A DNA stretch of 42,461 nt from contig DFWB01000200.1 in the NCBI GenBank assembly GCA_002380675.1, positions 8,663 to 51,123 on the forward strand, written 5' to 3'. This document shows positions 1-21,118 of the stretch, in pieces. The stretch is from Akkermansiaceae bacterium UBA4145. Its GTDB lineage: Bacteria > Verrucomicrobiota > Verrucomicrobiia > Verrucomicrobiales > Akkermansiaceae. The position numbers and the translations under genes were made by a program. How positions within the stretch are numbered: the stretch's first letter is position 1; every line of letters starts with the position of its first letter. Under the pieces are notes generated by a model. It had not been told where the DNA came from. It did not search any database and saw only the letters and a list, made by a program, of their open reading frames with translations.

Positions 1-602
1 TGCATGACATCGGAGGCATGGAGAAGAAGCCGGCGGCCTAGAACTCCACCAGGGTGCAGGATCGCAAATTCCTCTTCGCTGAACCCCCGCTCTACCTGCA
101 AGGTGGCCGCAAGGGCATCTCCGGCTACCAGAGCGAGCACTGAGCTGCACATCGGAGCGAGATTGAGAGCATCTCCCTCCTCTCCGATCTCCAAGGGAAT
201 AACAAGGTCCAGATTCATTCCCAGCGATCCCCCAGGCTTGCCCAGCAGGCCAATGGTCCCTACCCCGATTTCCCGTAAGCTCGGCAACATTCCCAAGAGC
301 TCTTCCGTTTCTCCGCTGTTGGACACGAGAATCACGACGTCTCCTGCACAGATCACTCCCATGTCTCCATGAAGGGCCTCAGCAGCATTAAGAAAAACCG
401 CAGGCGTTCCCGTGGAGGCAAGGGTTGCTGCCGTTTTGTGTCCGACAATTCCTGATTTACCTACCCCGGTGACAACCACCTTCCCAGCCCCTTCGAGAAT
501 CATGTTCGCCCCCCGCTGCACTGCCTCTTCCGCGGTCTCGCGAAAACGCGTCAAAGATTCCTCCACGGCATTGAGGAGCTTATGAAATGGTTGGTGTTTC
601 AT
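1..602 (-). CDS. KpsF/GutQ/KdsD-family arabinose-5-phosphate isomerase, N-terminal SIS-domain part; the CDS runs off the left edge of the window
   Basis: Absent from the ORF track because it is open-ended. My own minus-strand translation from ATG 602-600 gives MKHQPFHKLLNAVEESLTRFRETAEEAVQRGANMILEGAGKVVVTGVGKSGIVGHKTAATLASTGTPAVFLNAAEALHGDMGVICAGDVVILVSNSGETEELL... The motifs GVGKSG, ASTGTP, HGD and SNSGET are the SIS signature of KpsF/KdsD. The plus-strand ORF 4..372 is its antisense shadow. Confidence 0.85.
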   Translation of the reverse strand, partial: MKHQPFHKLLNAVEESLTRFRETAEEAVQRGANMILEGAGKVVVTGVGKSGIVGHKTAATLASTGTPAVFLNAAEALHGDMGVICAGDVVILVSNSGETEELLGMLPSLREIGVGTIGLLGKPGGSLGMNLDLVIPLEIGEEGDALNLAPMCSSVLALVAGDALAATLQVERGFSEEEFAILHPGGVLGRRLLLHASDVM

Positions 603-649
603 GATTGAAATTTTGCCAAGTGCCGAAGGCAGGATCCGCCCTATTCCCC

Positions 650-1984
650 CTAGGCTTTCACGACCTGCCCTTCACGCGGGGCCAACCCCGCGCCGGAGAC
701 GGCATTCCGGGTGTCAACCACGAGATCAGCATGGTCAAGCAAGGATGGCAGATCGTAGGCCTTGTGATTGGTAGCGATCAGGATGCAGTCAAACGCGGTG
801 ACCTCTTCCGGGGTCCACGCGATCGATCTGGTTCCCGTCCACTGCGCATGTTCACGGGTTGGTAAAATCTCCGGGATATGAGGATCGTAATAACTAATCT
901 CCGCCCCAAGCTCTGCCAGTTGATCCATCAGATCAAAAGTTGGCGACTCCCGCATATCGTCAACATCCTCCTTGTAGGCGAGGCCCATCAGAAGAATCCG
1001 ACTTCCCTTCACGGACTTGGCCCGCTCATTCAATGCCTCCATGGTCCTTTGGACCACCCAATGGGGCATGCTGTTATTGATTTCTCCCGCAAGCTCAATG
1101 AAGCGCGTGTGGACCCCATACTCCCGCGCTTTCCAGGTCAGATAAAAGGGGTCAATCGGAATGCAGTGCCCTCCCAATCCTGGGCCGGGATAAAAGGCCT
1201 TGAAGCCGAAGGGCTTGGTGGAAGCCGCCTGAATGACCTCCCATATATCGATACCCATGCGATCGGCTGCAATTTTCAGCTCATTGACGAGTCCGATATT
1301 CACAGCCCGGTAGATATTTTCCAGCAACTTGGCAAATTCAGCAACCTGGGTCGACCGAACGAGGACGACTTCTGAAATCACGGACTCATAGAGAGCCTGC
1401 CCGACTCGTGCACAATTGGCCGTAGTTCCTCCAACAACCTTGGGAATGCTGGTTGCCGAAAAGTGAGGGTTCCCCGGATCTTCTCTCTCGGGCGAATAGA
1501 CGAGGAAGATCTCCTCTCCCACAGTGAACCCCGTCTTCTCGATGCGAGGACGTAATTCCTCATCCGTGGTGCCAGGGTAGGTGGTGCTTTCCAGGCTCAC
1601 GACCTGTCCCGCCCGGAGATGGGGCACCAGGCCCTCAATCGTTCCAATAACGAAACTGAGGTCCGGCTCATTGTGCTCATTCAAAGGTGTCGGCACACAG
1701 AGGATGAGCGCATCAGCCCGTGAGGCCTCGGAAAAATCCGAGGTGGGCTCCAAGTGCCCCCCGCTCACGGCCTCCCGAATTGGCTCCCCGGGAATATGTT
1801 CGATGTAGCTCTTCCCCCCCTTGAGGGCCTTCACCTTGCCCTCATCGATATCCATGCCAATGACCCGGAAGCCACGAGCGACAAAGCCTAGGACCAGCGG
1901 AAGCCCCACGTAGCCCAGACCGACAACGCCAATAACCGCAGCGCGGTCCGTGATTTTTTTAAGTGCGTTTTCTGTATGTGTCAT
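650..1984 (-). CDS. Nucleotide-sugar dehydrogenase (UDP-glucose/GDP-mannose dehydrogenase family; HexNAc-dehydrogenase-like WbpA/TviB/WecC branch)
   Basis: 444 aa. It has the Rossmann motif VIGVVGLGYVGLPLVLGF, the catalytic-Cys region GGHCIPIDP, and the C-terminal UDP-binding domain ILLMGLAYKEDVDDMRESP. ATG at 1984 lies 7 nt after the cysN stop. The substrate cannot be assigned from sequence alone. Confidence 0.9.
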   Translation of the reverse strand: MTHTENALKKITDRAAVIGVVGLGYVGLPLVLGFVARGFRVIGMDIDEGKVKALKGGKSYIEHIPGEPIREAVSGGHLEPTSDFSEASRADALILCVPTPLNEHNEPDLSFVIGTIEGLVPHLRAGQVVSLESTTYPGTTDEELRPRIEKTGFTVGEEIFLVYSPEREDPGNPHFSATSIPKVVGGTTANCARVGQALYESVISEVVLVRSTQVAEFAKLLENIYRAVNIGLVNELKIAADRMGIDIWEVIQAASTKPFGFKAFYPGPGLGGHCIPIDPFYLTWKAREYGVHTRFIELAGEINNSMPHWVVQRTMEALNERAKSVKGSRILLMGLAYKEDVDDMRESPTFDLMDQLAELGAEISYYDPHIPEILPTREHAQWTGTRSIAWTPEEVTAFDCILIATNHKAYDLPSLLDHADLVVDTRNAVSGAGLAPREGQVVKA

Positions 1985-1991
1985 TTCTTGT

Positions 1992-3266
1992 TCAGAGAAT
2001 CATTCCTGCTCCCACCGTCTCATTGCTTCCCGGGTCAATCAGGATAAACGACCCGGTATGCCGGTTCCGGCGATAAGCATCATGCAACAAGGGGGCCGCG
2101 GATCTCAGCTTGATCCGGCCAATCTCATTCAGCTCAAAGGAGTCTACCTCCTCCTGCTTGCGCAAGGTATTGATGTCCACCTTGTAGCGAACCTCCTCGA
2201 CGATCGCCTTGGTTTCCCTCGTGGTGTGCCGAAGGATATATTTTCCTCGAGTCCGCAAGGGCTTTTTGGAAAACCAGCATACCATGGCATCAATATCCTG
2301 GCCGACTGCAGGCTGGTTATTGGGCTTGGCGATCATGTCGCCCCGCGAAAGGTCAATCTCGTCATCCAGAGTGAGACACACCGACTGTGGGGCAAACGCT
2401 TCCTCCTGTTCGCCATCCGCTGAATGAATTGCCTTCACCCGGGTGGTAAACCCGGACGGCATCACCGCCACTTCGTCCCCCGGCTTGAAGACTCCCCCGG
2501 CAACCCGGCCGGCATACCCTCGAAAATCATGCCACTGATCACTTTGGGGACGGATCACCCATTGAACAGGAAAGCGAGGGTCGATATGGTTCTCCTCACC
2601 CCCGATGTAGACATTCTCCAGATGATAGAGCAGCGACGGGCCCTCATACCAGGGCGTTTCTCCTGACCGCTCTACCACATTGGTTCCCTCCAGAGCAGAG
2701 ATCGGGATCGCTTGAATTCCAATAATGCAATCCAGCCGGGAGGCGAAGGATTCATATTCCCGCACGATGTTCTCGTAGATCTCCTGAGAGTAATCCACGA
2801 GGTCCATTTTGTTGACCGCAAGAACGACGTGCTGGATACGAAGCAAGTTAGCAATAAAGGAATGCCGTTTGGTCTGTTCGATGATCCCCTTCCGGGCATC
2901 CACAAGAACAATGGCCACATTCGCGGTAGAGGCCCCAGTCACCATGTTTCGGGTGTACTGGATGTGCCCGGGAGTATCCGCGATGATGAACTTGCGCTTA
3001 GGCGTTGCGAAATAACGATAGGCAACGTCAATAGTAATGCCCTGCTCTCGCTCGGCCCGCAGACCATCAGTCAAGAGCGCCAGATTGACATGCTCATCGC
3101 CACGTTTGCGGGAACTCTCCTCAATCGCTTCAAGCTGATCCTCAAAGATCGATTTTGAATCATGAAGCAAGCGGCCAATCAGGGTCGACTTCCCATCATC
3201 GACCGAACCTGCTGTGGTAAATCTCAATAAATCCATTGTTTTTGCGTGTGTCATCGCCGCCCGCAT
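1992..3266 (-). CDS. cysN: Sulfate adenylyltransferase subunit 1 (GTPase subunit), not fused to APS kinase
   Basis: 424 aa. GTPase motifs are TAGSVDDGKSTLIGRLL (G1), DTPGH (G3) and NKMD (G4). It is colinear with E. coli CysN. In-frame alternative ATGs at 3254 and 3236 leave the exact start uncertain. Confidence 0.93.
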   Translation of the reverse strand: MRAAMTHAKTMDLLRFTTAGSVDDGKSTLIGRLLHDSKSIFEDQLEAIEESSRKRGDEHVNLALLTDGLRAEREQGITIDVAYRYFATPKRKFIIADTPGHIQYTRNMVTGASTANVAIVLVDARKGIIEQTKRHSFIANLLRIQHVVLAVNKMDLVDYSQEIYENIVREYESFASRLDCIIGIQAIPISALEGTNVVERSGETPWYEGPSLLYHLENVYIGGEENHIDPRFPVQWVIRPQSDQWHDFRGYAGRVAGGVFKPGDEVAVMPSGFTTRVKAIHSADGEQEEAFAPQSVCLTLDDEIDLSRGDMIAKPNNQPAVGQDIDAMVCWFSKKPLRTRGKYILRHTTRETKAIVEEVRYKVDINTLRKQEEVDSFELNEIGRIKLRSAAPLLHDAYRRNRHTGSFILIDPGSNETVGAGMIL

Positions 3267-3311
3267 CAGGAGCTCGATCTCTTTTTTTCAGGCAGGAACC
3301 TTCCCGGAGGA

Positions 3312-4217
3312 TTAAAAGTATCCTTCCTTCTTCCGGTCTTCCATCGCGGTTTCCGACCTCTTGTCATCCGCCCGATTACCGCGCTCTGTCTGACGAGCTG
3401 CTGCCACTTCCTCGATAATCTTCTCCATCGTGTCGGCAGTTGACTCCACCGCACCAGTGATGGTGGCATCTCCCATGGTCCGGAAACGGATCATTTTCTG
3501 TTCCACCACCTCGCCTTCCCGGGGCTGCACAAATTCAGAGACGGCAAGAATGGTCCCATTCCGGCAGACCGTTTCACGCTCATGAGCGTAATAGAGACTG
3601 GGCAATTGGATGCCTTCTCTCTGCATGTACATCCAGACGTCCATCTCGGTAAAATTGGAGAGGGGAAAGATCCGGAAATGCTCTCCTTCGTGTTTCCGCC
3701 CGTTAAAAAGATTCCACAACTCGGGGCGCTGGTTCTTCGGATCCCACTGCCCGAAATCATCTCGGTGAGAGAAAAAACGCTCCTTCGCGCGAGCCTTCTC
3801 CTCATCGCGGCGCCCTCCACCCAGCGCGGCATCAAATCCATACTCTTCGATCGTATCCAGAAGGGTCGTAATCTGCAGGCTGTTCCGGGACGCGTTCGCA
3901 CTCTTTTCTTCCTCAACTTTCCCCTCGTCAATCGACTTCTGAACCGAACCCACAACCAAGCGAGCCCCCAGTTTTTCTACAAAGGCATCCCGATAGTCGA
4001 GGGTCTCCTGAAAATTGTGCCCTGTGTCAATGTGCACCAGTGGAAAGGGCAGTTTGGCTGGCCAGAAGGCCTTACAGGCCAGGTGAGCCATCACGATCGA
4101 GTCCTTTCCTCCGGAAAAAAGGAGGGCAGGATTTTCAAATTGGCTCGCCGTTTCTCTCAGCACGAAAATGGATTCGGCTTCAAGCTGGTCGAGGTGGCTT
4201 AGTTGGTAGTCAGGCAT
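3312..4217 (-). CDS. cysD: Sulfate adenylyltransferase subunit 2
   Basis: It carries the PP-loop LFSGGKDSIVMAHL, HIDTGHNF and the typical CysD C-terminus. The track ORF extends to 4307, but homology starts at MPDYQLSHLDQLEAESI (ATG 4217). That start overlaps the cysC stop by 8 nt (ATGCCTGA), consistent with translational coupling. Confidence 0.92.
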   Translation of the reverse strand: MPDYQLSHLDQLEAESIFVLRETASQFENPALLFSGGKDSIVMAHLACKAFWPAKLPFPLVHIDTGHNFQETLDYRDAFVEKLGARLVVGSVQKSIDEGKVEEEKSANASRNSLQITTLLDTIEEYGFDAALGGGRRDEEKARAKERFFSHRDDFGQWDPKNQRPELWNLFNGRKHEGEHFRIFPLSNFTEMDVWMYMQREGIQLPSLYYAHERETVCRNGTILAVSEFVQPREGEVVEQKMIRFRTMGDATITGAVESTADTMEKIIEEVAAARQTERGNRADDKRSETAMEDRKKEGYF

Positions 4218-4830
4218 GAGACTCTCCGGTGTGCCCCGCGGAACGCGCAGCGAGGTAGTTGAGAAGGATCTGTGCGCAGGCCTCTGCGCTCTGAGAATTG
4301 GTATCAAGGGTCAATTCCGCTTCACTCTGAGGCTCCTCGAACCCGCTATCCTTGCCGGTGAAGTCTGCAATACCTCCCGCACTGGCCTTGGCGTAGAGGC
4401 CCTTGGGATCGCGCTGCGCGCAGGTCGCGTAATCTGCTTTTACGAATACCTCCACAAAATCGCTCCCGATGATCTCTCTTGCGATAGATCGCAGGGACTC
4501 ACGCGGGGTGATCGCGGCGACGATGGTGATGACTCCGGCCTCGGAAAAGAGCCGAGCGACCTCTGCATTACGACGAATGTTTTCCGCCCGGTCCTCATCA
4601 GAAAAACCAAGGTCCGCATTCAGCCGGGAACGGAGGTTATCGCCATCGAGTATTACGGTGAAGCGACCCGCCTGATTCAACTCGCGCTCGACAATGTTCG
4701 CGATGGTTGACTTGCCTGATCCCGAAAGCCCATAAAACCATAGCACGATCCCCTTCTGCCCCAGCAATTGCTCCTTGTCCTCTCTTTTGAGAAACCGGTG
4801 GAACTCGGTATGAATATTGGTCTCAGGCAT
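4210..4830 (-). CDS. cysC: Adenylylsulfate (APS) kinase
   Basis: 206 aa with P-loop YGLSGSGKSTIA, LDGDNLR and FSDEDRAENIRR, a canonical APS-kinase layout. ATG at 4830. Confidence 0.93.
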   Translation of the reverse strand: MPETNIHTEFHRFLKREDKEQLLGQKGIVLWFYGLSGSGKSTIANIVERELNQAGRFTVILDGDNLRSRLNADLGFSDEDRAENIRRNAEVARLFSEAGVITIVAAITPRESLRSIAREIIGSDFVEVFVKADYATCAQRDPKGLYAKASAGGIADFTGKDSGFEEPQSEAELTLDTNSQSAEACAQILLNYLAARSAGHTGESHA

Positions 4831-4845
4831 CGCTTATGCAGGAGG

Positions 4846-5073
4846 TTAGGAGTGCGCCGCCGGGGAGCGCGGAAAGATCTGCCATGCCCGTTCATGGAGA
4901 TAATAGACAAGAAACTTGGCCAGAAACTCAATCCCCCCGATCGCGAGGGCGGGCTTGATGTCTCGATATACGGCCCACGCAATCAGGATGGTGGTAGCGG
5001 TAGCCAGCACTCTCCAGCTTACCGCCTTGAGAAGGCTTCGTTTCCTCGATTCCCTTACAGTTTCCGACACCAT
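4846..5073 (-). CDS. Small DUF2061-type membrane protein
   Basis: The core sequence RSLLKAVSWRVLATATTILIAWAVYRDIKPALAIGGIEFLAKFLVYYLHERAW has two hydrophobic helices, matching my recollection of the DUF2061 family. I chose the start at ATG 5073 (MVSETVRESRKR), 2 nt after the upstream stop. The track ORF extends to 5166, inside the GT26 gene. Confidence 0.7.
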   Translation of the reverse strand: MVSETVRESRKRSLLKAVSWRVLATATTILIAWAVYRDIKPALAIGGIEFLAKFLVYYLHERAWQIFPRSPAAHS

Positions 5074-5075
5074 GA

Positions 5076-5954
5076 CTACTTCTCTATCGAATGGTTCTTG
5101 AGCCCCATCAGCTGGGGAAGAATGGAAAGCAGGAAGGCCGTATTGTTGAAGGCGTAGCGTCGCCATAGGCGGCGCGGCTCACACACAAGGCGAAATAACC
5201 ACTCCAGACCGCATCTTTGCATCAGGCTGGGGGCCTGCCGGACCCTGCCGGTATGAAAATCAAACGCCGCACCCACCCCGAATAATATGAGCCCGTGATC
5301 CCACCCCTCACAGAGGTCTGGATTCCGACTCAACAGGTCATGCATGAAGCGCTCCTGTTTCGGAGTACTCAACCCTACCCAGAGGAAATGGGGCCTCCTT
5401 TCCTTGAGTTGCCCCACTAGTTCCTTTTCTTCCGCATCGGTCAGAGGACGAAAGGGGGGGCAGCAGGTGCCAGTCACCTCCGTCCCGGGAAATCGTTCCT
5501 CCATCCGTTCCGCAAGTTCTTCCGCCACTCCCTCATTACCACCCCAGAAATAATGCGTTCGCCCGGTCGCAGCCGTCGCCTCAACAACCTCCAGCATCAG
5601 ATCAGGGCCATAGACTCGTTCCACCTCCGATTGGCCATTCCATTTCGCGACCCAGACCATGGGCATACCATCGGGAGTGGAGAGATAGGAACGGTTATGA
5701 ATGCGCCTGAGTTCTGGGTCGCGGCTGGACTCCATTACGCCATGCACTCCTGAAACCGTGACATAGCCGGCGAAGCCCGGCTTGGCGGCACCCTCGAGCA
5801 CCTGCTCGAGGGCAGTGTTCATATTCAGGGCGCTGATGCCAACGCCAAGAACGTTGACACGCGGAACCTCACTGGGACTCGCTTCGCTCACGGACTTTTC
5901 CTGGCCAAGGCCTGAATTAATCAACCACGATTTCGCCCCTCTTCCGGCGCTCAT
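5076..5954 (-). CDS. WecG/TagA/CpsF-family glycosyltransferase (GT26)
   Basis: Motifs are VLGVGISALNMNTALEQV, STPDGMPMVW, FWGGNEGVAEE, LWVGLSTPKQERF and GVGAAFDFHTGRVRQAP...GLEWLFRL. The start is uncertain: ATG 5954 (chosen) or TTG 5966, and both overlap the end of the epimerase gene. Confidence 0.85.
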   Translation of the reverse strand: MSAGRGAKSWLINSGLGQEKSVSEASPSEVPRVNVLGVGISALNMNTALEQVLEGAAKPGFAGYVTVSGVHGVMESSRDPELRRIHNRSYLSTPDGMPMVWVAKWNGQSEVERVYGPDLMLEVVEATAATGRTHYFWGGNEGVAEELAERMEERFPGTEVTGTCCPPFRPLTDAEEKELVGQLKERRPHFLWVGLSTPKQERFMHDLLSRNPDLCEGWDHGLILFGVGAAFDFHTGRVRQAPSLMQRCGLEWLFRLVCEPRRLWRRYAFNNTAFLLSILPQLMGLKNHSIEK

Positions 5955-6921
5955 ACTGTTCTTCAATCCAGCGGTAGGTCTTTTCCAAGCCGGTGGCGAG
6001 ATTGACTTCCGGCTCCCACCCGAGAGTCGTTTGAATCAGGGTGTTATCGGAGTTCCGACCGCGGACACCCTGTGGTTTGCTCAGATCGTAGTTTCGCTTA
6101 AGCGTAATCCCGGCGATTCCCTCAATAATGTCGAGGAGGCCATTAATGGACACCAACTCGGCCCGGCCCAGATTCAACGGATCGGTATGACTGGATTCCA
6201 TCAGCCTGCTCATCCCACTCAGGCAGTCATCGATATACATGAATGACCTCGTTTGCTCGCCGTCACCCCAGATCTCAATGTCGTGATTACCCGTATCCAC
6301 AGCCTCAATAACCTTCCGGCAAAGAGCCGCAGGAGCCTTCTCACGGCCACCCGTCCAGGTCCCGAAAGGTCCATACACATTATGAAAACGAAAGACCCGG
6401 ACGTTACTCCCAAAATCCTCGTGGAAGTTCTGACACATCCGCTCGGAAAAGAGTTTTTCCCACCCGTATCCATCCTCAGGTTGTGCCGGATAGGCATCTG
6501 ATTCCTTTAGAGCCATTACGTCTGCATCGTCCTGCCGATAGTCCGGGTAGACACAAGCACTGCTCGCATAGAAAAAGCCTTTGACTCCCTGATCACGAGC
6601 CGCCATCAGAAGATGGGTATTGATCAGAACGCTGATCATGCACAGAGCTCGGTTGAACTCGATGAAGCCCATCCCACCCATGTTACAGGCGAGATTGTAG
6701 ACCTCATCGCATCCCTCCATCACGGTGTAGCAGGCTTCTTTTTCCTCGAGGTTGACTACGTGGTTCTGCGCGCCTTCGTGGACTTGATACCACTTGTCCA
6801 ATTGTTTGACGTCGGCCACGACCACTTCGTGCCCTTGGGCGAGAAGGGAGCCCGCAAGGTGTCCGCCTATGAAGCCTCCACCCCCCGCTACTAGAATTTT
6901 TTTTGTTTGGTTTTGGGACAT
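5917..6921 (-). CDS. GDP-mannose 3,5-epimerase-like SDR (predicted GDP-L-galactose/GDP-L-gulose forming)
   Basis: 334 aa with NAD motif VAGGGGFIGGHL. Long colinear matches to plant GME (recalled) include NMGGMGFI, FFYASSACVYP (acid/base Cys), YGWEK (YxxxK), FHNVYGPFGTWTGGREKAPAALCRK (acid/base Lys), WGDGEQTRSF and GVRGRNSDN. Confidence 0.85.
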   Translation of the reverse strand: MSQNQTKKILVAGGGGFIGGHLAGSLLAQGHEVVVADVKQLDKWYQVHEGAQNHVVNLEEKEACYTVMEGCDEVYNLACNMGGMGFIEFNRALCMISVLINTHLLMAARDQGVKGFFYASSACVYPDYRQDDADVMALKESDAYPAQPEDGYGWEKLFSERMCQNFHEDFGSNVRVFRFHNVYGPFGTWTGGREKAPAALCRKVIEAVDTGNHDIEIWGDGEQTRSFMYIDDCLSGMSRLMESSHTDPLNLGRAELVSINGLLDIIEGIAGITLKRNYDLSKPQGVRGRNSDNTLIQTTLGWEPEVNLATGLEKTYRWIEEQYERRKRGEIVVD

Positions 6922-7089
6922 GTTGTTTTCTTGGTTTGAGCTAATAGCGGATCGGCTCAGGGATAGCCTTCGTCGCTAAGGAATGAATTCGAATTGAGGC
7001 AAGAGATCACCACCTCGAGCAAAAAGGCCACCAACTCAGATTTGATGTGAGCAACCTGTGAATAAGTTGATGCTGGCCAGATCGCTTCC

Positions 7090-7101
7090 CAAGCTGCCGC
7101 C
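7090..7101 (-). promoter_or_regulatory. ops/JUMPStart-like element in the operon leader (candidate recruitment site for the NusG paralogue)
   Basis: The minus-strand sense sequence is GGCGGCAGCTTG. The enterobacterial ops consensus is GGCGGTAGnnTG, so there is 1 mismatch in 10 specified positions. It lies about 170 nt upstream of the epimerase ATG and downstream of the AT-rich island. Confidence 0.35.
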
Positions 7102-7221
7102 CTTGGTCATTTGGCGGGATGTTCCGTCAAGACCTGCATAGCACTCCGGAGGCGGTGTGAATAAGCTTCTCAACTTCCGCTTGATGTGGTCGAAAAACAC
7201 AAAATCTGACTAATGTTCAAG

Positions 7222-7253
7222 AAAAAATGAACTGATTCATAAAAAAATGAACT
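7222..7253. repeat. Two perfect 12-bp direct repeats AAAAAATGAACT spaced exactly 20 bp apart, in an AT-rich island (candidate operator/promoter region)
   Basis: The copies are at 7222-7233 and 7242-7253 and are identical. They sit directly 3' of the NusG-paralogue stop (7263) and at the 5' end of the 340-nt leader. Confidence 0.6.
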
Positions 7254-7262
7254 TATAAAAAT

Positions 7263-7823
7263 TTACGATCCTGTCTCGTCGGGGCGTAGTGAGCCCTTTC
7301 TAGGCAGGAGAAGAGAATAGAGGTCCACATCAACGGGCTGAGCCTGACCGAGAAACTCGATGAAAATCCGGACCCTCTCTTCCGCCGGGCGGACCTCGAG
7401 GACTGTTCCGGTCATTCCCCGCAGGGGGCCGTCGGCCAGCTCCACCTGATCACCCGGCTCCGCAATTGGCTGAAGGGTAAGAACTTCTCCCTGATTCTCC
7501 TCTCTAGCCAGCTCTGCTCTCAGTTCCTCGATAAAATCCGGGGCCACCGTAGGAACGCTCTCCCCAAAGCGAAGAATCCCGCTGACACCAGCTGCGTAGC
7601 TAACGGCCCGATGCTTCTCCTCGAGTGAAAACCGAGCAAGGAGGTAGCCCGGAAACAGTGGTTCTATCCACCAGATTTTTCCACGACGCGTCACTTTCTT
7701 GTAGCGGAGACGAGGACAAACAACCTCCACCCCGCCAATCGCCCTGAGAGCGGCTGCTGCGATGTGCTCCCGCTTGGGCTGCGCTCGCAAGCAATACCAC
7801 GCTGCACCCTCGGTCTCTCTCAT
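7263..7823 (-). CDS. Specialised NusG paralogue (RfaH/UpxY-like transcription antiterminator; NGN + KOW domains)
   Basis: The NGN-like N-terminus is WYCLRAQPKREHIAAAALR...CPRLRYKKVTRRGKIWWIEPLFPGYLLARF. The KOW-like C-terminus is GDQVELADGPLRGMTGTVLEV. I chose ATG 7823, 5 nt after the upstream stop. The track ORF start at 7886 would overlap the regulator gene by 58 nt. Confidence 0.8.
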   Translation of the reverse strand: MRETEGAAWYCLRAQPKREHIAAAALRAIGGVEVVCPRLRYKKVTRRGKIWWIEPLFPGYLLARFSLEEKHRAVSYAAGVSGILRFGESVPTVAPDFIEELRAELAREENQGEVLTLQPIAEPGDQVELADGPLRGMTGTVLEVRPAEERVRIFIEFLGQAQPVDVDLYSLLLPRKGSLRPDETGS

Positions 7824-7828
7824 TGCTG

Positions 7829-8323
7829 CTATTCCCCAAGGACCCTTTGAATCAGAGGCAGGACGAGCTTGGCCTGCTTTAACCACCGTTCCAACTTCTT
7901 CACTCTTTCGTCATAAAATGCCTGCTTGGCTCCGTCCTCCTCCTTCGCGACCTCCGCCTCCAAGGACTTCAGGCGATCTTTTCCACTCTCCATGTGCGGC
8001 CGCATTTGCTCCCGGATGAAGCCCCCTACCAGTTTCTTCAGCTCGATGTCCCCTTCGTAATACGTCCTTCGGACATCAGGTCCCTCCACTTCCCTGATTG
8101 CGCCCAAGGTCCTGAGAAATTTGAGCCCCTGACTGACCGAGCCCTTCGAAATGTTGAGACGCACCACGAGATCGTCCATGGCCAGGGGTTCGGCCGAGAC
8201 AAACAGCAATCCGTAGATTTCCCCTACCGATCGAGGCAAACCTGCCACCCGAACTCCATCGGCAAAGAGAGAAACTACCTGTCGTTCAATTTCTACCAGG
8301 GTGTTGGGCTTAGCGTCGGACAC
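7829..8323 (-). CDS. Winged-helix transcriptional regulator (MarR/GbsR-like)
   Basis: 164 aa. The HTH region is SVGEIYGLLFVSAEPLAMDDLVVRLNISKGSVSQGLKFLRTLGAIREV, followed by a coiled-coil tail. It uses a GTG start at 8323. It is the first gene of the minus-strand operon. Confidence 0.7.
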   Translation of the reverse strand: MSDAKPNTLVEIERQVVSLFADGVRVAGLPRSVGEIYGLLFVSAEPLAMDDLVVRLNISKGSVSQGLKFLRTLGAIREVEGPDVRRTYYEGDIELKKLVGGFIREQMRPHMESGKDRLKSLEAEVAKEEDGAKQAFYDERVKKLERWLKQAKLVLPLIQRVLGE

Positions 8324-8529
8324 AGGCCCACCTCAACACATGGAGTTCGACTGTTCAATTTTTAATGAACTGACAGCGCAGTAACGGTAGACGCTATCTC
8401 GCCAAATAGAAGGTAACCTGAAAACCATGTCGCTTGTGCAGGAGCTTTATAATTTATATACATTTAATGTAAAAATAAGTCGACTTTCCTGATTTTTTAT
8501 AAAAAGTTAGCTCTCTTTCTCGATCATCA
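8324..8529. promoter_or_regulatory. AT-rich divergent control region between the regulator operon (-) and the beta-helix/sulfatase pair (+)
   Basis: 206 nt without an ORF, including long A/T runs (TATAATTTATATACATTTAATGTAAAAATAAG...TTTTTTATAAAAAG). It contains AATGAACTGA at 8364-8373, the same 10-mer as at 7226-7235. Confidence 0.5.
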
Positions 8530-11500
8530 ATGTGCCGCTTCCAATCATCTCTCTGGACGTCTTTTTTCCTCGGGACAGCCTGTATCTTGGCGCAGGCAGC
8601 AAATGAGCTTCATGTAGCCCCCCCTCCCCTTGGGAACGACTCCAACCCAGGAACCCTCTCCCGGCCCTTCGCGACCATCGCCCACGCGGAGCTCCAGACC
8701 CAGGCAGGCGATACTGTATTTCTTCACGAGGGTGTCTACCGCGAATCTGTCAGGTTCCGGCGGAGCGGAACCGCACAAGCCCCGATTTGCTACCAGCCCT
8801 ACAACGTTGGGCAGAATCCAGCAGAGGTCCGTATCTCTGCCTTCACGATTATCGAGCCCGGCGTTAACGGCGCGGGGACCTGGGAACGCCACGATGGCCC
8901 AATTTTCAAAATCCAACTCACCCCAGAGTATGGACTCGGCCTGGGGAAATCCTGTGTTTTGATCAACGGGGAGCCGCAGAAGATCGCCCGATGGCCTGAT
9001 GCTATTACGGCCTTTGACTTTGATTGGGAAGGCATGGCCTCTCCGCTGCGGGCCAACCACGATCCCTCTTCCGCCGGGCCGGAGCCTCCCCACGAAGGCA
9101 CTTTCTTTACCGCCACCTACGAGGACCCGGCTCTCCCGGTTGGCGCCCTCAACAGTTGGCGAGGGGCACGGATTGATACCAGCCCCGGAGGGGGAGTATT
9201 CCGTGATACTGGCATCGTAACGCAGTCCACTGAGGATAGTGTGACCTTTCGCTATCGGCCCTTCCCCAAGCCGGGTGCTTATGCTGCCAAAGCAGACCCT
9301 TATTTTCTCTGGAACCACCTCAATGCCCTCGATCAAGAGGGCGAATATTTCTTCGACATCGAGGGAGTCAGCGGCCCGGCCTACACCCTCTATCTTATTC
9401 CGCCCGGCGATACCTCTCCAGACCAAACCACTGTCGAGATCAAGAGCAGGGAGTATGGATTTGATATGAATTGGACGAGTCACATCCATTTGAAGCAGCT
9501 CAATTTTATTGGAGGAGGAATCGAATGTCCTGTTTCCAGCTCCTTCATCGTCATGGACGACCTTCATCTTCGCTACTGCGGATCCGGTCTTGACGCGCTG
9601 CAAACCGGACGAGCGGCAGTCTGGCTGAAGGGCGACGGACACAGACTACTCAACAGCCAGGTCGAATATTCCTACGGAGGAGGAGCCATCACGCTTGGCA
9701 CAAATACCGAAATCGCGAACAACGTCATTCGAGACTGCATGCTCTACGGAGTGGCCTCTTTTGACAGTTCCGACATTCACGCTCACCACAATACTATCTT
9801 CGGAAACCAAGGGGTGAATATTCACATGTATTCTCCTCGCGGCAGATTCAATTACAACCACTGCTATCATGCCGGAAAGCGAGTGACAGACTCGGCGAGT
9901 ATGAACTCGAATTACAACGGGGACTTGCAGGGGATGGAGATTGCCTACAACTGGGTGCATAGCAATGTGGCGCGGTTCAATTTGACAAGAACCGAGGAGA
10001 ACGGAGCAGTCCGGCCAGTCTGGGGAGGAGGCCGGGGTATCCGGATGGATACCAGCCCCTCTAATGTCTTCATTCATCACAACATCGTCTGGGGCATCTC
10101 CGCACCGAATCTCAGCTTAACCTTATGGGCTCTGGACCCGAACCAGATCAATTACAGAAACTCCATGCAGCGAGTGTATAACAATACCATCGACGGGCAG
10201 ATCCATATCGCCAATCGCGGTAGCATTGGAGGTATCGATATTCGCAACAATATCTGTAGCGAAGTGAGAGAATTTGGCGCGGAAATAGATCCGCACATCG
10301 TTCGGAACAACTTGATGACCATCGGGAAATTTGAACCGCGATGGCCCGGCAATACCGCCGACAACTCCCTCTTCAAATCGGCAACGACCGGGAATTTTGA
10401 ACTCCATGGGGGCGCTACTGCCATCGATGCCGGCGAGCACATTTCCGGTATCACCACCAACTTTGCTGGAGACGCTCCAGACGTGGGAGCCCTCGAGCAT
10501 AATGGCTCCTCCAACCCTCACTGGAGCGCAGGCGCCCTGCTCCGTCCTAAAGACGCCGAAGCGCTTCGGTTTTCAGTCCTCATGAAACCAAATAGTGACC
10601 GCTATCTGGTTGTTTCGGGAATGCCGGAGGGAAGAATCCCAGCCAGAGAATTCACCATCCGTCTTGGCCCAGCCGTTCTTGAGGACCATCGCCTGATTTA
10701 CTCGACCGAAACCCATCACGCCGAGGCCTACTTCAAGATCGAGGCAGAGGACCTCTCGGGCAATATCCCGGTCGATTTTTCCCTCGATGGAGCGACCTTC
10801 CAAAGTAATGGCAATGCAATAGACCTGCAGGGGTCCTCCCTCCAGATCAGCAATCTGAACGTTGCTGCCACCACACCCTCGGGAGGCACCCCGCACACGA
10901 TTACCGGTCGAGGGTTCGGTCCAGACGAGTGGACGATCCCCCTGAAGATGGAAAATACAACCGGCGAGGACCTGAACCATGCGCCCGTGCCGGTCATCTT
11001 CAACAGCAGGGAGCACATCGAGAGAGGCCGAATGAATCCTGATTGCTCCGACCTTCGAATCCTGCATTGGGAAACTGGAAGAGAGCTGAAATACTGGATT
11101 GAGTCCGGTAGCAATTCCGAGGCCACCCTCCTCTGGGTAAAATACGGCGACGACTCCCCCCTGGTGAATCGATTCAGCCACCTCGATGAATCAGGCTACT
11201 ACTTATCATTTGGAGAGCCAGGCAGGGAATCCTCTTCTAACCCTGCCATCGTGTATGACTACTTTCCTGAGTTGCTCGACGAAGGTCTGAAAGTGTGGGT
11301 TTCAGCAAACCGTCTCGCCGAAACCCAACAAGATGGCGACCCTATAAGCTCATGGGACAATATTGCTTACCCGAACTCCCTTACTCAGGCGGATCCCTCG
11401 GCGACACCCACCCTGAAATTCAATCAACTCAATCAGCTTCCTGCCGCCAACTTCAATGGCTCCGATTACCTGCAAATCAATGGATTTCCCCAGCATGTAT

Positions 11501-12519: not shown

Positions 12520-14331
12520 ATGACAAGTTCGAGAATGCGGAGCTGCCGCATCAAAACTCTTCTCGGGGTGGGATTTCTTCTAAGCCCTCTATCAGCCCTC
12601 GCTGAAGAACCCTACAATGTCCTGCTTATCATTGCGGATGATTTGAATAGTCGCATCGCGCCGTTGGGAGACCCACAGGCGATCACCCCTCACCTGACCA
12701 GACTGGCTCAGCGCTCGGTGACTTACCGGAATTGTGTGAGCCAATACCCGTTCTGTGCCCCTTCCAGAGGATCCTTCCTTACCGGACTCCACCCATGGAA
12801 CCTGGGCATCCACGCCGCCGGTGGCAACCAGGCCAACGGAGAAAATATTGTGCCAGGGCGAATGCGGATATCCCAATTCTTCCACTCACAAGGCTATTGG
12901 ACTGGCAGCTACGGTAAAGTTGAGCACTACGAACGTGCCGAACGATGGGATGAGCTCATTCCACGCGCTCTCGCCATAGATGGCACCCTCCAATCAGTTC
13001 AGGATTTCAGCGCCCACAAGGGTATCAGCGGTAACACCAACTTCCTGATTTATGAGGACGGGGAGCCAGCAAATTTTATGGACGGGCTGACAGCCACCAA
13101 CGCCCTTACCGCCATGGAAAAATGCCTGGCCAGAGACCAGAGGTTCTTTGTCGCGGCGGGTTTCTACATGCCGCACACCCCTTGGATTGTGCCCGCCAGC
13201 ATTGCAGATCTCCATGATCCAGCGAACTTCGTTCTACCCGAATCCCCGCCAGGCTCCTACGACAACGCCTACTGGCCACCTTACGCCTATACCTACGGCA
13301 AAGCGAGTGACACCCGGCCCTACCTTACGGAGGACGAACTTCGCTCCCTGTTTCATGCCTACTACAGTGCCGTCACGTTGATGGATTATAATCTGGGGCG
13401 CCTGCTCGATTTTGCAAATTCACACAATCTCTGGGACAACACGGTGATTGCTTTCATCAGTGACAATGGATTTAGCCTGATGGAGCATCAACACCTCTAC
13501 TCGAAAAGGAACTACTCCCGTGAATCCATCCACGTCCCGATGATGATTCACCATCCGGGAATGACGTCCGAAGGCCGCTTCTGTGATCGCCAGGTAGGAC
13601 TGGTTGACCTTATGCCAACCCTCATCGAGCTAGCCGGAATTGAGCCTTATCCGAGGCATCTGGACGGCCAGTCTCTTGCCCCGCTGCAGGAAGACCCCGA
13701 CAGAGAGTGGGAAACGCCCGCACTCTCCTGTCTGACCTACCGGGATGGTTCGAAGCCAAGGTTCCGGATCGGGCAGGTTGGTCCGTGGAAGCTGGTCGAA
13801 GGGCCTTTCTCTGCCTCTTTGCGGAGGGTCATGAACCATCGTGATGATCCCTTCGAACATTTTGGAACATTCCCGAACGGGATCACCCCTCAGGCCCTTG
13901 GCTCCCTCGAGACGGCCGTGGCAGAGATTCCCTTTATTGATAACGTGTTTTACGTAGGCAAACCGGATCTGGGACAGACTGACAGAGACGGGGATGGATT
14001 AGCTGATGAGACCGAAATTGACCTCCTCCCCCTTGGTTTTCATCCTTTCGAGGAAAGCAGCACAGAATTGAGGCGCCTCGTGAGTAGCGCCCTTGAAGTG
14101 GACCCAGCTCCCGATGGATTTACCCTCACCTTCCCTGACTTTCGCGTTAACCCCGCGGAGTTTCGCGCGTGGCATACGTATCCACTCTCTCTCGAGAGGT
14201 CGTCCGACCTTTCGACGTGGGAGAATGTCCCTGAAAATTTCCAGCTAAATTCCTTGGGGGCTCTCCAGTGGCTGGAAAGTCCAGACCCTGTATCCGGCAA
14301 ATCGTTTTACCGGCTGCGCATCGCTCCGTGA
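12520..14331 (+). CDS. Secreted Cys-type (formylglycine-dependent) sulfatase with a C-terminal DxDxDG + FYRLR module
   Basis: It has a signal peptide. Motifs are NVLLIIADDL and the sulfatase signature QYPFCAPSRGSFLTG (Cys79, codon 12754-12756), plus PHTPW and SDNG. AGGAG lies 4 nt upstream of the ATG. The start is 6 nt after the upstream stop, so it is probably co-transcribed. Confidence 0.92.
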   Translation: MTSSRMRSCRIKTLLGVGFLLSPLSALAEEPYNVLLIIADDLNSRIAPLGDPQAITPHLTRLAQRSVTYRNCVSQYPFCAPSRGSFLTGLHPWNLGIHAAGGNQANGENIVPGRMRISQFFHSQGYWTGSYGKVEHYERAERWDELIPRALAIDGTLQSVQDFSAHKGISGNTNFLIYEDGEPANFMDGLTATNALTAMEKCLARDQRFFVAAGFYMPHTPWIVPASIADLHDPANFVLPESPPGSYDNAYWPPYAYTYGKASDTRPYLTEDELRSLFHAYYSAVTLMDYNLGRLLDFANSHNLWDNTVIAFISDNGFSLMEHQHLYSKRNYSRESIHVPMMIHHPGMTSEGRFCDRQVGLVDLMPTLIELAGIEPYPRHLDGQSLAPLQEDPDREWETPALSCLTYRDGSKPRFRIGQVGPWKLVEGPFSASLRRVMNHRDDPFEHFGTFPNGITPQALGSLETAVAEIPFIDNVFYVGKPDLGQTDRDGDGLADETEIDLLPLGFHPFEESSTELRRLVSSALEVDPAPDGFTLTFPDFRVNPAEFRAWHTYPLSLERSSDLSTWENVPENFQLNSLGALQWLESPDPVSGKSFYRLRIAP

Positions 14332-19460: not shown

Positions 19461-20981
19461 TCAGGGGGTAATAACAACCCTGTCTCCCAGCTTTGTGAGA
19501 TCCCAGAACCTTCCAGCACTTCTTGGGGGTATCCGCAGGCACCCATGAGAAGCCGGGTGGTCCGGACAGTAACCCTCGTGAAAACCAATCGCACTGCAAT
19601 TAAGGCGTTGGAAGAAAGGCATTCTTACTCCCTTATATAGATTAGACTCATGATCGCGGTGCCTGTCGGTAATCACAAACTCCCCAGGTTCTGTCCGGAA
19701 CCCCTTCTTTCCAGTTGATACCCTTGTGGTCAGCAGCATCTGGCCCTCAATGCCGTAGACCCAAGCCCTCTGCTCAGACAAATCGACCTTGATCCAGCGT
19801 TCTTCATGTTCCGGATCTATACCTAGCAGTAGTTGCATCATCTTCACGTCCCCACGACGCGCTGCAAATCCGATCGCAGAAAAGGATTTGCCACTGGTAC
19901 GCACCGAAAGCGTCGCTCCATGGTCTACCAAAAGCTTGGCCATTTCGAGATTCCCGCTATCTGCTGCCGCCATCAGAGCCGTTACTCCTGAATCGTATTT
20001 CAAGTGACTTTTGAGAAAGCCCACTGGTCGCACCCATGCGAGAAATGCGGGCGTAACCGGACACACAAACGCCTCATTAACATCAGCCCCTTTCCGAACC
20101 AGAGCACGGCAAAGGTCTATGCGGTTCATTGCAACCGCAAGATGAAGCGGGCCCTGACCCTCTCTCCCCAGAGGTTTCAGTTCCTTATCACTCAAATAGC
20201 CTGCCTCTAGAATATCCTCCAGCAGGCCCCGCCTTCCTCCGCGTACCGCCGCTACCAAGAGCGAATCAGTAGAGCCCCCGTCGGGCTTCACTCGATGCAG
20301 GAGAAGAAACCGCAGGAGTTCACGATCCCCCTCCACAATCGCATTGTAGAGAGCTGGCCCTGCCACGCCGCCGTGCCGCAGAATCACTTCGGCTCGCTCA
20401 AGGTCTCTTACCTGTAACAGTGCGCTGATCGCAGGACGGCCTCCGGGACCCAGCAAGTTCGGGTTGGCCCCAGCCTTAAGAAGCATTTCAAGTTCCACCG
20501 GAGTCGAATCCAATGCGAGCGCAAGCCCGAGGGCGGTCTCCCCTCCCGGACCTCGCTCGCGTGGATCTGCCCCATGGGCAATCAGAATTCTCAGAGCCTC
20601 CTGATTGCCACAATGAAGGGCCAATTGTAACGGGCTCCACCCACTCGGGTGCCGCAGGTTGCAATTCTCGCCCCCGACCAACAACTGGGAAAGAATATCG
20701 GACTGTCCCTGCAAAATTGCCCGGTGTATCGCCGACTCCGTCCATCTGCTGAGCATCAGCCCCTGCGCGACCTCCCAATGAGGAGCTGCCATGCGTGATG
20801 GAAGTTGCCCATGTGGAACACCGGTAACGAGTCGAGGAAACATGAGAGCCTTGAGGCCTCCTCCCTCACTCCTCAAAACCTCGCCAAAGGCTGGCATCCC
20901 ATTTGGGGGAGCCCCGGCCAGAGCACCTGCCACCGCAAGACCAAGGGAGCATATCCCTGCAATACCGCGTAACCTTTGCAT
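19461..20981 (-). CDS. Secreted ankyrin-repeat protein fused to a C-terminal L,D-transpeptidase (YkuD) catalytic domain
   Basis: There are several ANK repeats (for example GWSPLQLALHCGNQEALRILIAHGADP, GQGPLHLAVAMNRIDLCRALVRKGADVN, GVTALMAAADSGNLEMAKLLVDHGA). The YkuD domain reads IKVDLSEQRAWVY...STGKKGFRTEPGEFVI...IGFHEG...ASHGCLRIP. ATG 20981 gives a signal peptide MQRLRGIAGICSLGLAVAGALAG. The alternative GTG is at 21032. Confidence 0.85.
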   Translation of the reverse strand: MQRLRGIAGICSLGLAVAGALAGAPPNGMPAFGEVLRSEGGGLKALMFPRLVTGVPHGQLPSRMAAPHWEVAQGLMLSRWTESAIHRAILQGQSDILSQLLVGGENCNLRHPSGWSPLQLALHCGNQEALRILIAHGADPRERGPGGETALGLALALDSTPVELEMLLKAGANPNLLGPGGRPAISALLQVRDLERAEVILRHGGVAGPALYNAIVEGDRELLRFLLLHRVKPDGGSTDSLLVAAVRGGRRGLLEDILEAGYLSDKELKPLGREGQGPLHLAVAMNRIDLCRALVRKGADVNEAFVCPVTPAFLAWVRPVGFLKSHLKYDSGVTALMAAADSGNLEMAKLLVDHGATLSVRTSGKSFSAIGFAARRGDVKMMQLLLGIDPEHEERWIKVDLSEQRAWVYGIEGQMLLTTRVSTGKKGFRTEPGEFVITDRHRDHESNLYKGVRMPFFQRLNCSAIGFHEGYCPDHPASHGCLRIPPRSAGRFWDLTKLGDRVVITP

Positions 20982-21118
20982 CTGATCCTGCAGTTCACCA
21001 TTGGGCCCCCTGGAATGTCGAGGCCCTTTCACTCCTCTTCATCGCCGCACCAATCACCGGCTTCCGCTGATCCTCAAATGATCACAATCCTCGGCCGGGG
21101 CCCTGCACAAGCGGCTCA

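Follow-up and report, generated by a model that had tools for sequence, protein, structure and literature searches.

An operon of marine Roseibacillus relatives with embedded PAPS-synthesis genes probably makes a sulfated heteropolysaccharide

The left end of a 42,461-nucleotide (nt) stretch of contig DFWB01000200.1 from Akkermansiaceae bacterium UBA4145 (the window, by which we mean that whole stretch) is filled by ten genes on the minus strand, the apparent front of a long polysaccharide operon (Table 1). Three of them, cysC, cysD and cysN, encode the synthesis of 3'-phosphoadenosine 5'-phosphosulfate (PAPS), and we propose that the operon probably directs the synthesis of a sulfated heteropolysaccharide through the Wzx/Wzy pathway. 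From the KpsF gene at the left edge to the regulator gene ending the array at position 8323, the junctions are +47, +7, +45, -8, +15, +2, -38, +341 and -58 nt; the value of -38 is the overlap of the start of the glycosyltransferase family 26 (GT26) gene with the end of the GDP-mannose 3,5-epimerase (GME) gene. An earlier reading of this DNA (the first-pass annotation) had described this gene order and tight packing, and comparison of the open reading frames (ORFs) with Pfam, NCBIfam and PDB bears it out: its gap figures are reproduced, with a leader of 341 nt, and the overlap of regulator and NusG paralogue is added to them. Its identities for GME, the dehydrogenase of the N-acetylhexosamine (HexNAc) type and GT26 are confirmed as well. 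Six independent contigs from metagenomes and several metagenome-assembled genomes (MAGs) show the same order; because it recurs in these independent sources, it is more than a chance arrangement.

The individual proteins carry the marks of their families. The closest solved relative of the HexNAc dehydrogenase is Cap5O (E 4e-72), and UDP-glucose dehydrogenases follow at about 1e-31. CysD, 301 residues long in the gene calls of the metagenome contigs, shows the SGGKDS motif, and the P-loop GLSGSGKST is present in CysC. GME aligns with solved plant GMEs over residues 5-328, and the Cys in SSAC, the Lys in GGREKAP and YGWEK (YxxxK) are all kept; for the Cys and Lys residues we assume the catalytic roles that they have in the Arabidopsis enzyme.

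Table 1. Features of the operon, its leader and the neighbouring genes. Positions are those of the window unless a relative's locus (L001, L005) is named; scores are in bits, with the family cutoff in brackets where given.
Feature	Position	Strand	Evidence or remark
KpsF/GutQ-family SIS sugar-phosphate (arabinose-5-phosphate) isomerase	1-602	minus	N-terminal 200 residues only; cut by the left edge of the window
NDP-HexNAc 6-dehydrogenase (WecC/Cap5O/WbpA-like)	650-1984	minus	TIGR03026 430
CysN, GTPase subunit of sulfate adenylyltransferase	1992-3266	minus	TIGR02034 573 (336), NF003478 598 (590)
CysD, catalytic subunit of sulfate adenylyltransferase	3312-4217	minus	NF003587 451 (195), NF009214 437 (413), TIGR02039 418 (397)
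CysC, separate adenosine 5'-phosphosulfate (APS) kinase, makes PAPS	4210-4830	minus	TIGR00455 210 (139), PF01583 186
DUF2061 small protein	4846-5073	minus	PF09834 70
GT26 (WecG/TagA/CpsF family) glycosyltransferase	5076-5954	minus	PF03808 181.5 (27.4); PDB TagA E 1.4e-25
GME (to GDP-L-galactose, GDP-L-gulose)	5917-6921	minus	PDB 8sg0 E 5e-99, 2c59 E 4.6e-98
Leader of the biosynthetic operon, 341 nt	6922-7262	minus	conserved in relatives (alignment A2)
TTATTCAC repeats (two)	~7145, ~7050	minus	flank the ops-like site; invariant in A2
ops-like element GGCGGCAGCTTG	7090-7101	minus	RfaH ops consensus GGCGGTAGnnTG with T6 replaced by C
AT-rich palindromic repeat pair AGTTCATTTTTTTATGAATC and GTTCATTTTTTCTTGAAC (GTTCA-N8-TGAAC type)	7215-7253	minus	invariant in A2
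NusG paralogue (RfaH/UpxY-like)	7263-7886	minus	PF02357 43, above cutoff
Winged-helix (MarR/GbsR-like) regulator	7829-8323	minus	weak: MarR_2 24.9 (27), CudC 36
Secreted beta-helix protein, 1327 residues	8530-12513	plus	Beta_helix, DUF1565 and DUF2341 matches; signal-peptide-like N-terminus
Sulfatase	12520-14331	plus	PF00884 121
Sulfatase maturase of the formylglycine-generating enzyme (FGE) type	30956-32215		
PAPS-dependent sulfotransferase, 289 residues	L005 15321-16190		PF00685 45.8 (22), PF13469 28.0 (27)
orf240, 240 residues	L005 10480-11202; N-terminus (first 84-112 codons) at L001 16025-16360		

The PAPS genes are a lineage-specific part of this operon. Scanning the GT26 protein against metagenomes returned 80 loci. 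All six in which GT26 is at least 69% identical (L015-L020) keep the order regulator, NusG paralogue, GME, GT26, DUF2061, cysC, cysD, cysN, whereas neither DUF2061 nor any cys gene follows GT26 in any of the 37 more distant loci with at least 3 kb of downstream sequence. GME lies directly upstream of GT26 in 7 of the 52 more distant loci with enough upstream sequence. Since cys genes are carried by every close GT26 locus and by none of the distant ones, the PAPS module appears from these comparisons to be a lineage-specific insertion into an older polysaccharide operon led by GME and GT26. The lineage that has the module is the same one whose operon carries sulfotransferases.

It is conceivable that cysC-cysD-cysN are simply the only general sulfate-activation genes of the cell, working for cysteine synthesis through a cysH/sir pathway located elsewhere, so that PAPS for sulfation would be a by-product. 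CysD, CysN and CysC indeed score as ordinary equivalogs, and related bacteria of the Planctomycetes-Verrucomicrobia-Chlamydiae group, such as Pontiella, carry cysDNCHIJ for assimilation (PMC7356697). We regard this account as unlikely. The cys genes are flanked by GT26 on one side and by sugar-nucleotide genes on the other, their junctions measure -8 to +45 nt, an RfaH-like gene and an ops-like leader precede them, and they occur only in the sulfotransferase-bearing lineage. No cysH, sir, cysK or sulfate transporter was found in the 42-kb window together with about 19 kb of extension (~61 kb). The first-pass annotation had already remarked that the cys genes do not stand with cysH and that the window lacks a sulfotransferase, a polymerase and an exporter; Pfam scans of the 42-kb window and a six-frame search with the hidden Markov models (HMMs) of both sulfotransferase families agree, finding no cysH/sir, sulfotransferase, polymerase or exporter. 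Even as the sole copy in the cell, cysCDN would still feed the sulfotransferases of the operon; this would not refute sulfation, the genes would then serve two purposes, and the assimilatory account thus qualifies the sulfated-polysaccharide reading rather than excluding it. That the operon's cysCDN provide a dedicated PAPS supply of the NodPQ kind, as the first-pass annotation proposed, is a prediction.

In this lineage the small DUF2061 gene always lies immediately upstream of cysC, a position conserved in L015-L020. A DUF2061 gene also stands beside nodH/nodP/nodQ in Mesorhizobium nod loci (bioRxiv 10.1101/2022.04.26.489235), and in a SAR86 locus with a PEP-CTERM protein nearby (L095 6001-6225) it overlaps a fused cysN-cysC gene at the latter's end. 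Found beside PAPS genes in three unrelated lineages, DUF2061 may be an accessory of sulfate activation or of sulfation. As a universal partner of cysC it is rejected, being unlinked to PAPS genes in an Opitutales MAG and on a 271-kb contig.

The operon had been expected to continue beyond position 1, and it does. An exact-protein look-up of the HexNAc dehydrogenase led to a 16.4-kb Tara Oceans contig (L001) that shares 99.8% identity with positions 1-7656 of the window and thus belongs to the same population; it runs 8.7 kb past the left edge. On the same strand it carries the full-length KpsF (316 residues, SIS and CBS domains, TIGR00393 239 bits against a cutoff of 203.7), a 3-dehydrogenase of the GFO family, a formyltransferase, a DegT aminotransferase, a DCC1-like protein, an F5/8-type-C protein, Wzx (PF13440 41.9 bits, cutoff 23), a GT4-like glycosyltransferase, an FkbM methyltransferase and the start of a gene that we call orf240. 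The FkbM protein, searched against species-representative genomes, gave 11 collinear loci in MAGs of marine Roseibacillus (Verrucomicrobiota). One of them, L005, comes from a sister species, is collinear with L001 at 93% nucleotide identity over 10.8 kb and continues with the whole of orf240, a 515-residue multi-transmembrane protein, two GT4 enzymes, a 289-residue sulfotransferase, EpsH, EpsI, a class-I methyltransferase and a 633-residue membrane protein. The order after orf240 is kept in every relative that reaches that far (L004, L006, L007, L009, L012, L014), down to about 70% protein identity in L012, and the L099/L100 lineage, with an orf240 41% identical, has the same framework with some rearrangement. 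The operon thus extends at least 19 kb past position 1 and comprises no fewer than 28 genes on 27 kb or more; positions 1-8323 of the window are its promoter-proximal third. The last protein, with about nine transmembrane segments, is GT-C-like, has no family match and is conserved after the last methyltransferase (L005 18628-20481; L012 18889-20790); because its gene follows that methyltransferase, the true 3' end of the operon is not reached.

This extension contains what the first-pass annotation had suggested looking for on the left: a PF00685/PF13469 sulfotransferase (the canonical one, in close relatives), Wzx, a Wzy-like protein and further glycosyltransferases. The central prediction of its sulfated-polysaccharide interpretation stands in that respect. 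Its suggestion of a capsule-like polymer of the Kps kind does not: the machinery is Wzx/Wzy with an exosortase. We reject a group 2 capsule exported by an ABC transporter, as KpsF is the only Kps protein present; no KpsM/T, KpsC/S or KpsE/D gene was seen in the window or in the continuation of about 19 kb, and Wzx is there instead. The candidate for Wzy is the 515-residue protein, with 13 hydrophobic segments (12-13 transmembrane) and no family match in profile scans. EpsH of the relatives is an exosortase (TIGR02602 109.2 bits, cutoff 105.55; PF09721 128 bits); EpsI stays below its cutoff (35 against 42.8 bits), and the score of the XrtA subtype is not reached (104 against 208).

The lineage recurs across ocean metagenomes and MAGs (Tara, ALOHA and others). 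Many contigs break inside the locus (L004, L006, L008, L010, L013, L014, L016-L019), and the gene content downstream of DegT varies among close relatives, L015 having two ORFs without assignment where L001 has the DCC1-like and F5/8-type-C proteins. Such breaks and variable content are typical of a hypervariable surface-glycan region.

Two proteins encoded beyond the window bear on sulfation. The canonical sulfotransferase has the motif YRCGS for the 5'-phosphosulfate-binding (5'-PSB) loop and RDPRDCLVS for the 3'-phosphate-binding (3'-PB) site, matches SULT1C2 in PDB with E 1.9e-5, and is encoded in L004 (partial), L005, L006, L007, L009, L012, L014 and L099/L100. The second, orf240, has no Pfam, NCBIfam or PDB match in sequence and profile searches, and its family comprises 34 proteins in a database of 5.8 billion. 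Nineteen members, aligned (A1), share the invariant patterns D-G-F-P-x-S-x-N, H-x-H and R-x-P-x5-S. Three distant members read DGFPRS(G/A)NTF, which we take from general motif knowledge to be a classical 5'-phosphosulfate-binding loop, and R111 and S119 stand eight residues apart, presumably the Arg-to-Ser spacing of the 3'-phosphate-binding motif. The corresponding loop, DGFPGSANSF, lies on L001 and thus in the window's own population. The AlphaFold (AF2) model of orf240 is of high confidence (pLDDT 92, pTM 0.89); in a Foldseek comparison with PDB, all of the top 50 matches are PAPS-dependent sulfotransferases, among them SULT7A1, heparan-sulfate 3-OST, TPST2, CurM-ST and NDST1, but at TM-scores of only 0.35-0.46 and E 7e-4 or weaker. 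The model thus suggests a protein of sulfotransferase fold whose activity is uncertain, a probable second sulfotransferase of the operon. The orf240 gene always lies inside polysaccharide clusters, and in L099/L100 it directly adjoins a PF00685 sulfotransferase gene. As neither of the two proteins has hydrophobic segments, the repeat is probably sulfated while lipid-linked and not yet flipped, the order of events proposed for synechan (PMC8205485).

These enzymes might in principle sulfate a protein tyrosine, a lipid or a small molecule instead of a glycan, which would leave the polysaccharide unsulfated. Acceptor specificity is not readable from sequence, and among the best solved relatives of both proteins are TPST and cytosolic SULTs for small molecules, besides sulfotransferases for heparan sulfate. 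Yet both genes lie amid glycosyltransferase, polymerase and exosortase genes in every relative, even in the lineage whose orf240 is only 41% identical, and we consider a non-glycan acceptor very improbable.

The sugar genes allow a sketch of the polymer. The DegT aminotransferase is closest to the C3-aminotransferases DesV, WbpE and QdtB (E 6e-84 to about 3e-72), and the GFO protein to 7bvj, of the UDP-GlcNAc 3-dehydrogenase type, and to a model of an archaeal UDP-GlcNAc 3-dehydrogenase. With the HexNAc dehydrogenase and an acyltransferase, they would constitute a route of the WbpA/B/E/D type to a 2-acetamido-3-acylamido-2,3-dideoxy-hexuronic acid. The acyl step differs between relatives: a formyltransferase is encoded in L001 (8983-9705), L005 and L011-13, a hexapeptide acetyltransferase occupies the same slot in L015 (13328-13987) and L099 (2880-3536), and L007 has no formyltransferase there (gap 1261-1959). 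Such a swap of the acyl enzyme between close relatives implies that N-formyl and N-acetyl groups on the polymer would vary at strain level. KpsF suggests a sugar of the 3-deoxy-D-manno-oct-2-ulosonic acid (Kdo) type, and the two methyltransferases (FkbM and class-I) suggest O-methylation. Taken together, the likely product is a sulfated, O-methylated polysaccharide of the Wzx/Wzy type with L-galactose and an N-acylated diamino-uronic acid.

The pairing of GME with GT26 is also seen in quite distant soil and freshwater loci (L023, L026, L029, L031, L047, L049, L050). L020 (5694-9491) has the order NusG paralogue, fcl, gmd, a second GT26, GME, GT26, DUF2061 and cysCDN, each pathway to a GDP-L-sugar being followed by a GT26 gene. 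There are hints here that the donors of these GT26 enzymes may be GDP-L-sugars, which would be unusual in the family, and not UDP-ManNAc(A).

A switch for such a long operon may lie in its leader, which we aligned with those of three relatives, including the divergent L020, where the downstream gene is fcl and not GME (alignment A2). Besides the palindromes and the TTATTCAC repeats, a third invariant block, GGCGG(T/C)AGC(T/G)TG, lies between these repeats. The exact ops consensus GGCGGTAGnnTG occurs at the homologous leader position of L015 (4953-4964), L017 (1461-1472) and L020 (5619-5630), and these three are the only exact matches in all 98 loci (~0.9 Mb); in L020 the site reads GGCGGTAGCGTG, as ops does in E. 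coli. In the window, L001 and L002 the sequence is GGCGGCAGCTTG, with one mismatch, a C at position 6. The window's site gains weight because exact, position-specific matches occur in relatives. The neighbouring NusG-family protein scores best against RfaH (TIGR01955 70.7 bits, cutoff 144.5; NF006534 58.9, cutoff 124), followed by UpxY at 55 and NusG at 54; all of these scores are below the equivalog cutoffs, so it is to be classed by sequence as a NusG paralogue, not as a demonstrable RfaH orthologue. The pair of regulator and NusG-paralogue genes is conserved in L015, L017 and L020. By analogy with E. coli RfaH (PMC5995543), the paralogue would most likely load at the ops-like site and so let RNA polymerase traverse the whole operon (at least 27 kb); the palindromes and TTATTCAC repeats may serve the adjacent winged-helix regulator as an operator, or may form a promoter. 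An Rfam search of the leader and the regulator region gave only a sub-threshold match to sX4 (20 bits against 70). Scans of 1-8700 for sigma-70 promoters and intrinsic terminators gave counts at or below the shuffle expectation and are uninformative; no terminator signal on the minus strand rose above chance.

We propose the following course of events. RNA polymerase would start in or before the 341-nt leader and meet the ops-like site, where the NusG paralogue would load and suppress termination along the operon, which would be read as a single transcript. GME would supply GDP-L-galactose or GDP-L-gulose; the HexNAc dehydrogenase, the 3-dehydrogenase (GnnA/WbpB-like), the C3-aminotransferase and the N-formyltransferase (in some strains an N-acetyltransferase) would supply the 2-acetamido-3-acylamido-2,3-dideoxy-hexuronic acid; and KpsF may contribute a Kdo-type precursor. 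GT26 and four GT4 enzymes would then build the repeat unit on a lipid carrier on the cytoplasmic side. CysD, CysN and CysC would convert sulfate to PAPS, from which the canonical soluble sulfotransferase, and possibly the second, divergent one, would sulfate the lipid-linked repeat, while FkbM and the class-I methyltransferase would O-methylate it. Finally, Wzx would flip the unit and the Wzy-like protein would polymerise it, with the EpsH/EpsI exosortase system co-expressed.

Several points weigh against this proposal. The canonical sulfotransferase is not on the window strain's own DNA; L001 ends about 5 kb short of the gene, and the evidence for it comes from relatives with 92-97% amino-acid identity. 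In orf240, the position of the catalytic Lys/Arg in the PSB loop is Gly in most members, including those of Roseibacillus, and Arg in three; given this Gly, orf240 may be inactive. The T at position 6 of ops matters for E. coli RfaH, and the window's ops-like match, taken by itself, does not exceed chance (two matches, expectation 2.1). Finally, neither a priming phosphoglycosyltransferase nor outer-membrane polysaccharide export (OPX) or polysaccharide co-polymerase (PCP) proteins of the Wza/Wzc kind were found in the ~35 kb of operon and flanks.

The last point bears on where the glycan ends up. The product could be a sulfated O-antigen of lipopolysaccharide (LPS), or a glycan carried by PEP-CTERM proteins on which the co-encoded exosortase acts. 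O-antigens too are built by Wzx/Wzy, the 515-residue protein without a family match could be ligase-like, and the lack of OPX/PCP export genes and the presence of EpsH/EpsI and of the 633-residue GT-C-like membrane protein in the operon fit either version. Against the PEP-CTERM version, no PEP-CTERM protein was found in the window, neither the 1327-residue beta-helix protein nor any other ORF there having such a tail; exosortase loci are, moreover, reportedly associated classically with exopolysaccharide (EPS). We judge these alternatives doubtful, and a sulfated surface polysaccharide or EPS remains our preferred reading; whether the glycan is free or attached to LPS or to a glycoprotein is not discriminated by the present data.

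The locus is probably a bacterial sulfated-glycan cluster with its own PAPS supply, a kind already known, and it can be set beside several characterised systems. The xss cluster of Synechocystis sp. PCC 6803 makes synechan, a sulfated EPS, with Wzx/Wzy, eight glycosyltransferases and two sulfotransferases of different subfamilies (PMC8205485); its authors regarded such clusters in 2021 as unknown in other bacteria and as essentially a cyanobacterial trait (PMC8205485). Like xss, the Roseibacillus operon would be a cluster for a Wzx/Wzy heteropolysaccharide, with many glycosyltransferases and two sulfotransferases or sulfotransferase-like proteins, and sulfation in xss is thought to be cytoplasmic, on the repeat unit (PMC8205485). 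Unlike it, the cyanobacterial xss, as listed there (PMC8205485), has no cysD/N/C and no exosortase and is under XssS/R/Q control, whereas the Roseibacillus operon contains PAPS synthesis, a NusG paralogue with an ops-like site, and genes pointing to L-galactose and a diamino-uronic acid as sugars. The rhizobial nodP-nodQ-nodH genes likewise place sulfate activation beside a sulfotransferase in a glycoconjugate locus, but the nodPQ/nodH acceptor is a lipochitooligosaccharide and not a polymer, and nodPQ is an extra copy. NodQ is a fusion of CysN and CysC, and the cysC of Roseibacillus is a separate gene.

Closer in habitat and in broader phylum, the marine anaerobe Pontiella sulfatireligans (Kiritimatiellae) has a sulfated exopolymer detected chemically and a putative cluster for a sulfated, glycosaminoglycan-like EPS (PMC7356697), in which a sulfotransferase lies, as here, amid GT2/GT4, aminotransferase and methyltransferase genes (PMC7356697). 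Its cysDNCHIJ, however, are reported as assimilatory and outside the EPS cluster, and no GME/GT26, exosortase or NusG paralogue is described (PMC7356697). The leader resembles the proteobacterial RfaH/ops system (JUMPStart; PMC5995543), in which a NusG paralogue likewise goes with the 12-nt GGCGGTAGnnTG element, placed in the leader of a long operon for a polysaccharide; the differences are the sub-cutoff RfaH score, the position of the gene immediately upstream of its presumed target, the other phylum and the C6 of the window's site. The diamino-uronic acid genes match WbpA/B/E/D of Pseudomonas, WlbA-D of Bordetella and GnnA/GnnB in having a HexNAc 6-dehydrogenase, a GFO 3-dehydrogenase, a C3 aminotransferase (WbpE E 2e-72) and an N-acyltransferase. 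They differ from Wbp/Wlb in that a formyltransferase is the acyl step in the window's lineage, a 2-epimerase occurs only in some relatives and the scores are below equivalog cutoffs. In our literature searches we found nothing linking Roseibacillus with sulfotransferases or sulfate assimilation, and no report of RfaH/ops-type elements in Verrucomicrobia.

Open-ocean heterotrophic Verrucomicrobia such as Roseibacillus are known as consumers of algal sulfated glycans. We put forward tentatively, with slightly less than even confidence in the whole of it, that Roseibacillus itself makes a sulfated, O-methylated EPS with L-galactose and an N-formyl diamino-uronic acid from one self-sufficient operon, which would combine PAPS synthesis, a new Pfam-less sulfotransferase family, a PAPS-linked DUF2061 and an antitermination switch of the RfaH/ops type. 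If this is true, marine sulfated polysaccharide has a bacterial source that has gone unrecognised. Few sulfated polysaccharides of bacteria are genetically defined, the documented ones being mainly cyanobacterial, and the work on Pontiella gave candidate genes only; with its PAPS supply, one or two sulfotransferases, Wzx/Wzy and regulator, the present locus is a gene set that is compact, conserved and open to testing. Of interest in their own right are the PAPS module inside the operon, the Pfam-less family of sulfotransferase fold, the association with an exosortase and the RfaH/ops-like leader outside Proteobacteria. Should the polymer be confirmed, part of the marine sulfated-glycan pool would be bacterial, and the locus would supply enzymes for engineering sulfated glycans as well as handles on the function of DUF2061, on the donor of GME-paired GT26 enzymes and on a sulfotransferase-fold family without a Pfam model.

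The neighbouring genes may be connected with the same polymer. The genes for the secreted beta-helix protein and the sulfatase stay by the operon in two arrangements: in the window and L015 they are divergent from the regulator, in L020 (13555-16260) they follow cysN. This hints that the beta-helix protein, a possible glycan-processing enzyme, and the sulfatase could together process or turn over a sulfated polymer of the cell's own making. The other 34 kb of the window encode dnaE, an ankyrin-YkuD protein, superoxide dismutase, several GFO/IDH/MocA oxidoreductases, the sulfatase, the sulfatase maturase, rpsB, tsf and others. The ankyrin-YkuD protein (19461-21032, minus strand) has many ankyrin repeats and, at its C-terminus, a YkuD L,D-transpeptidase domain, an unusual architecture unrelated to the operon.

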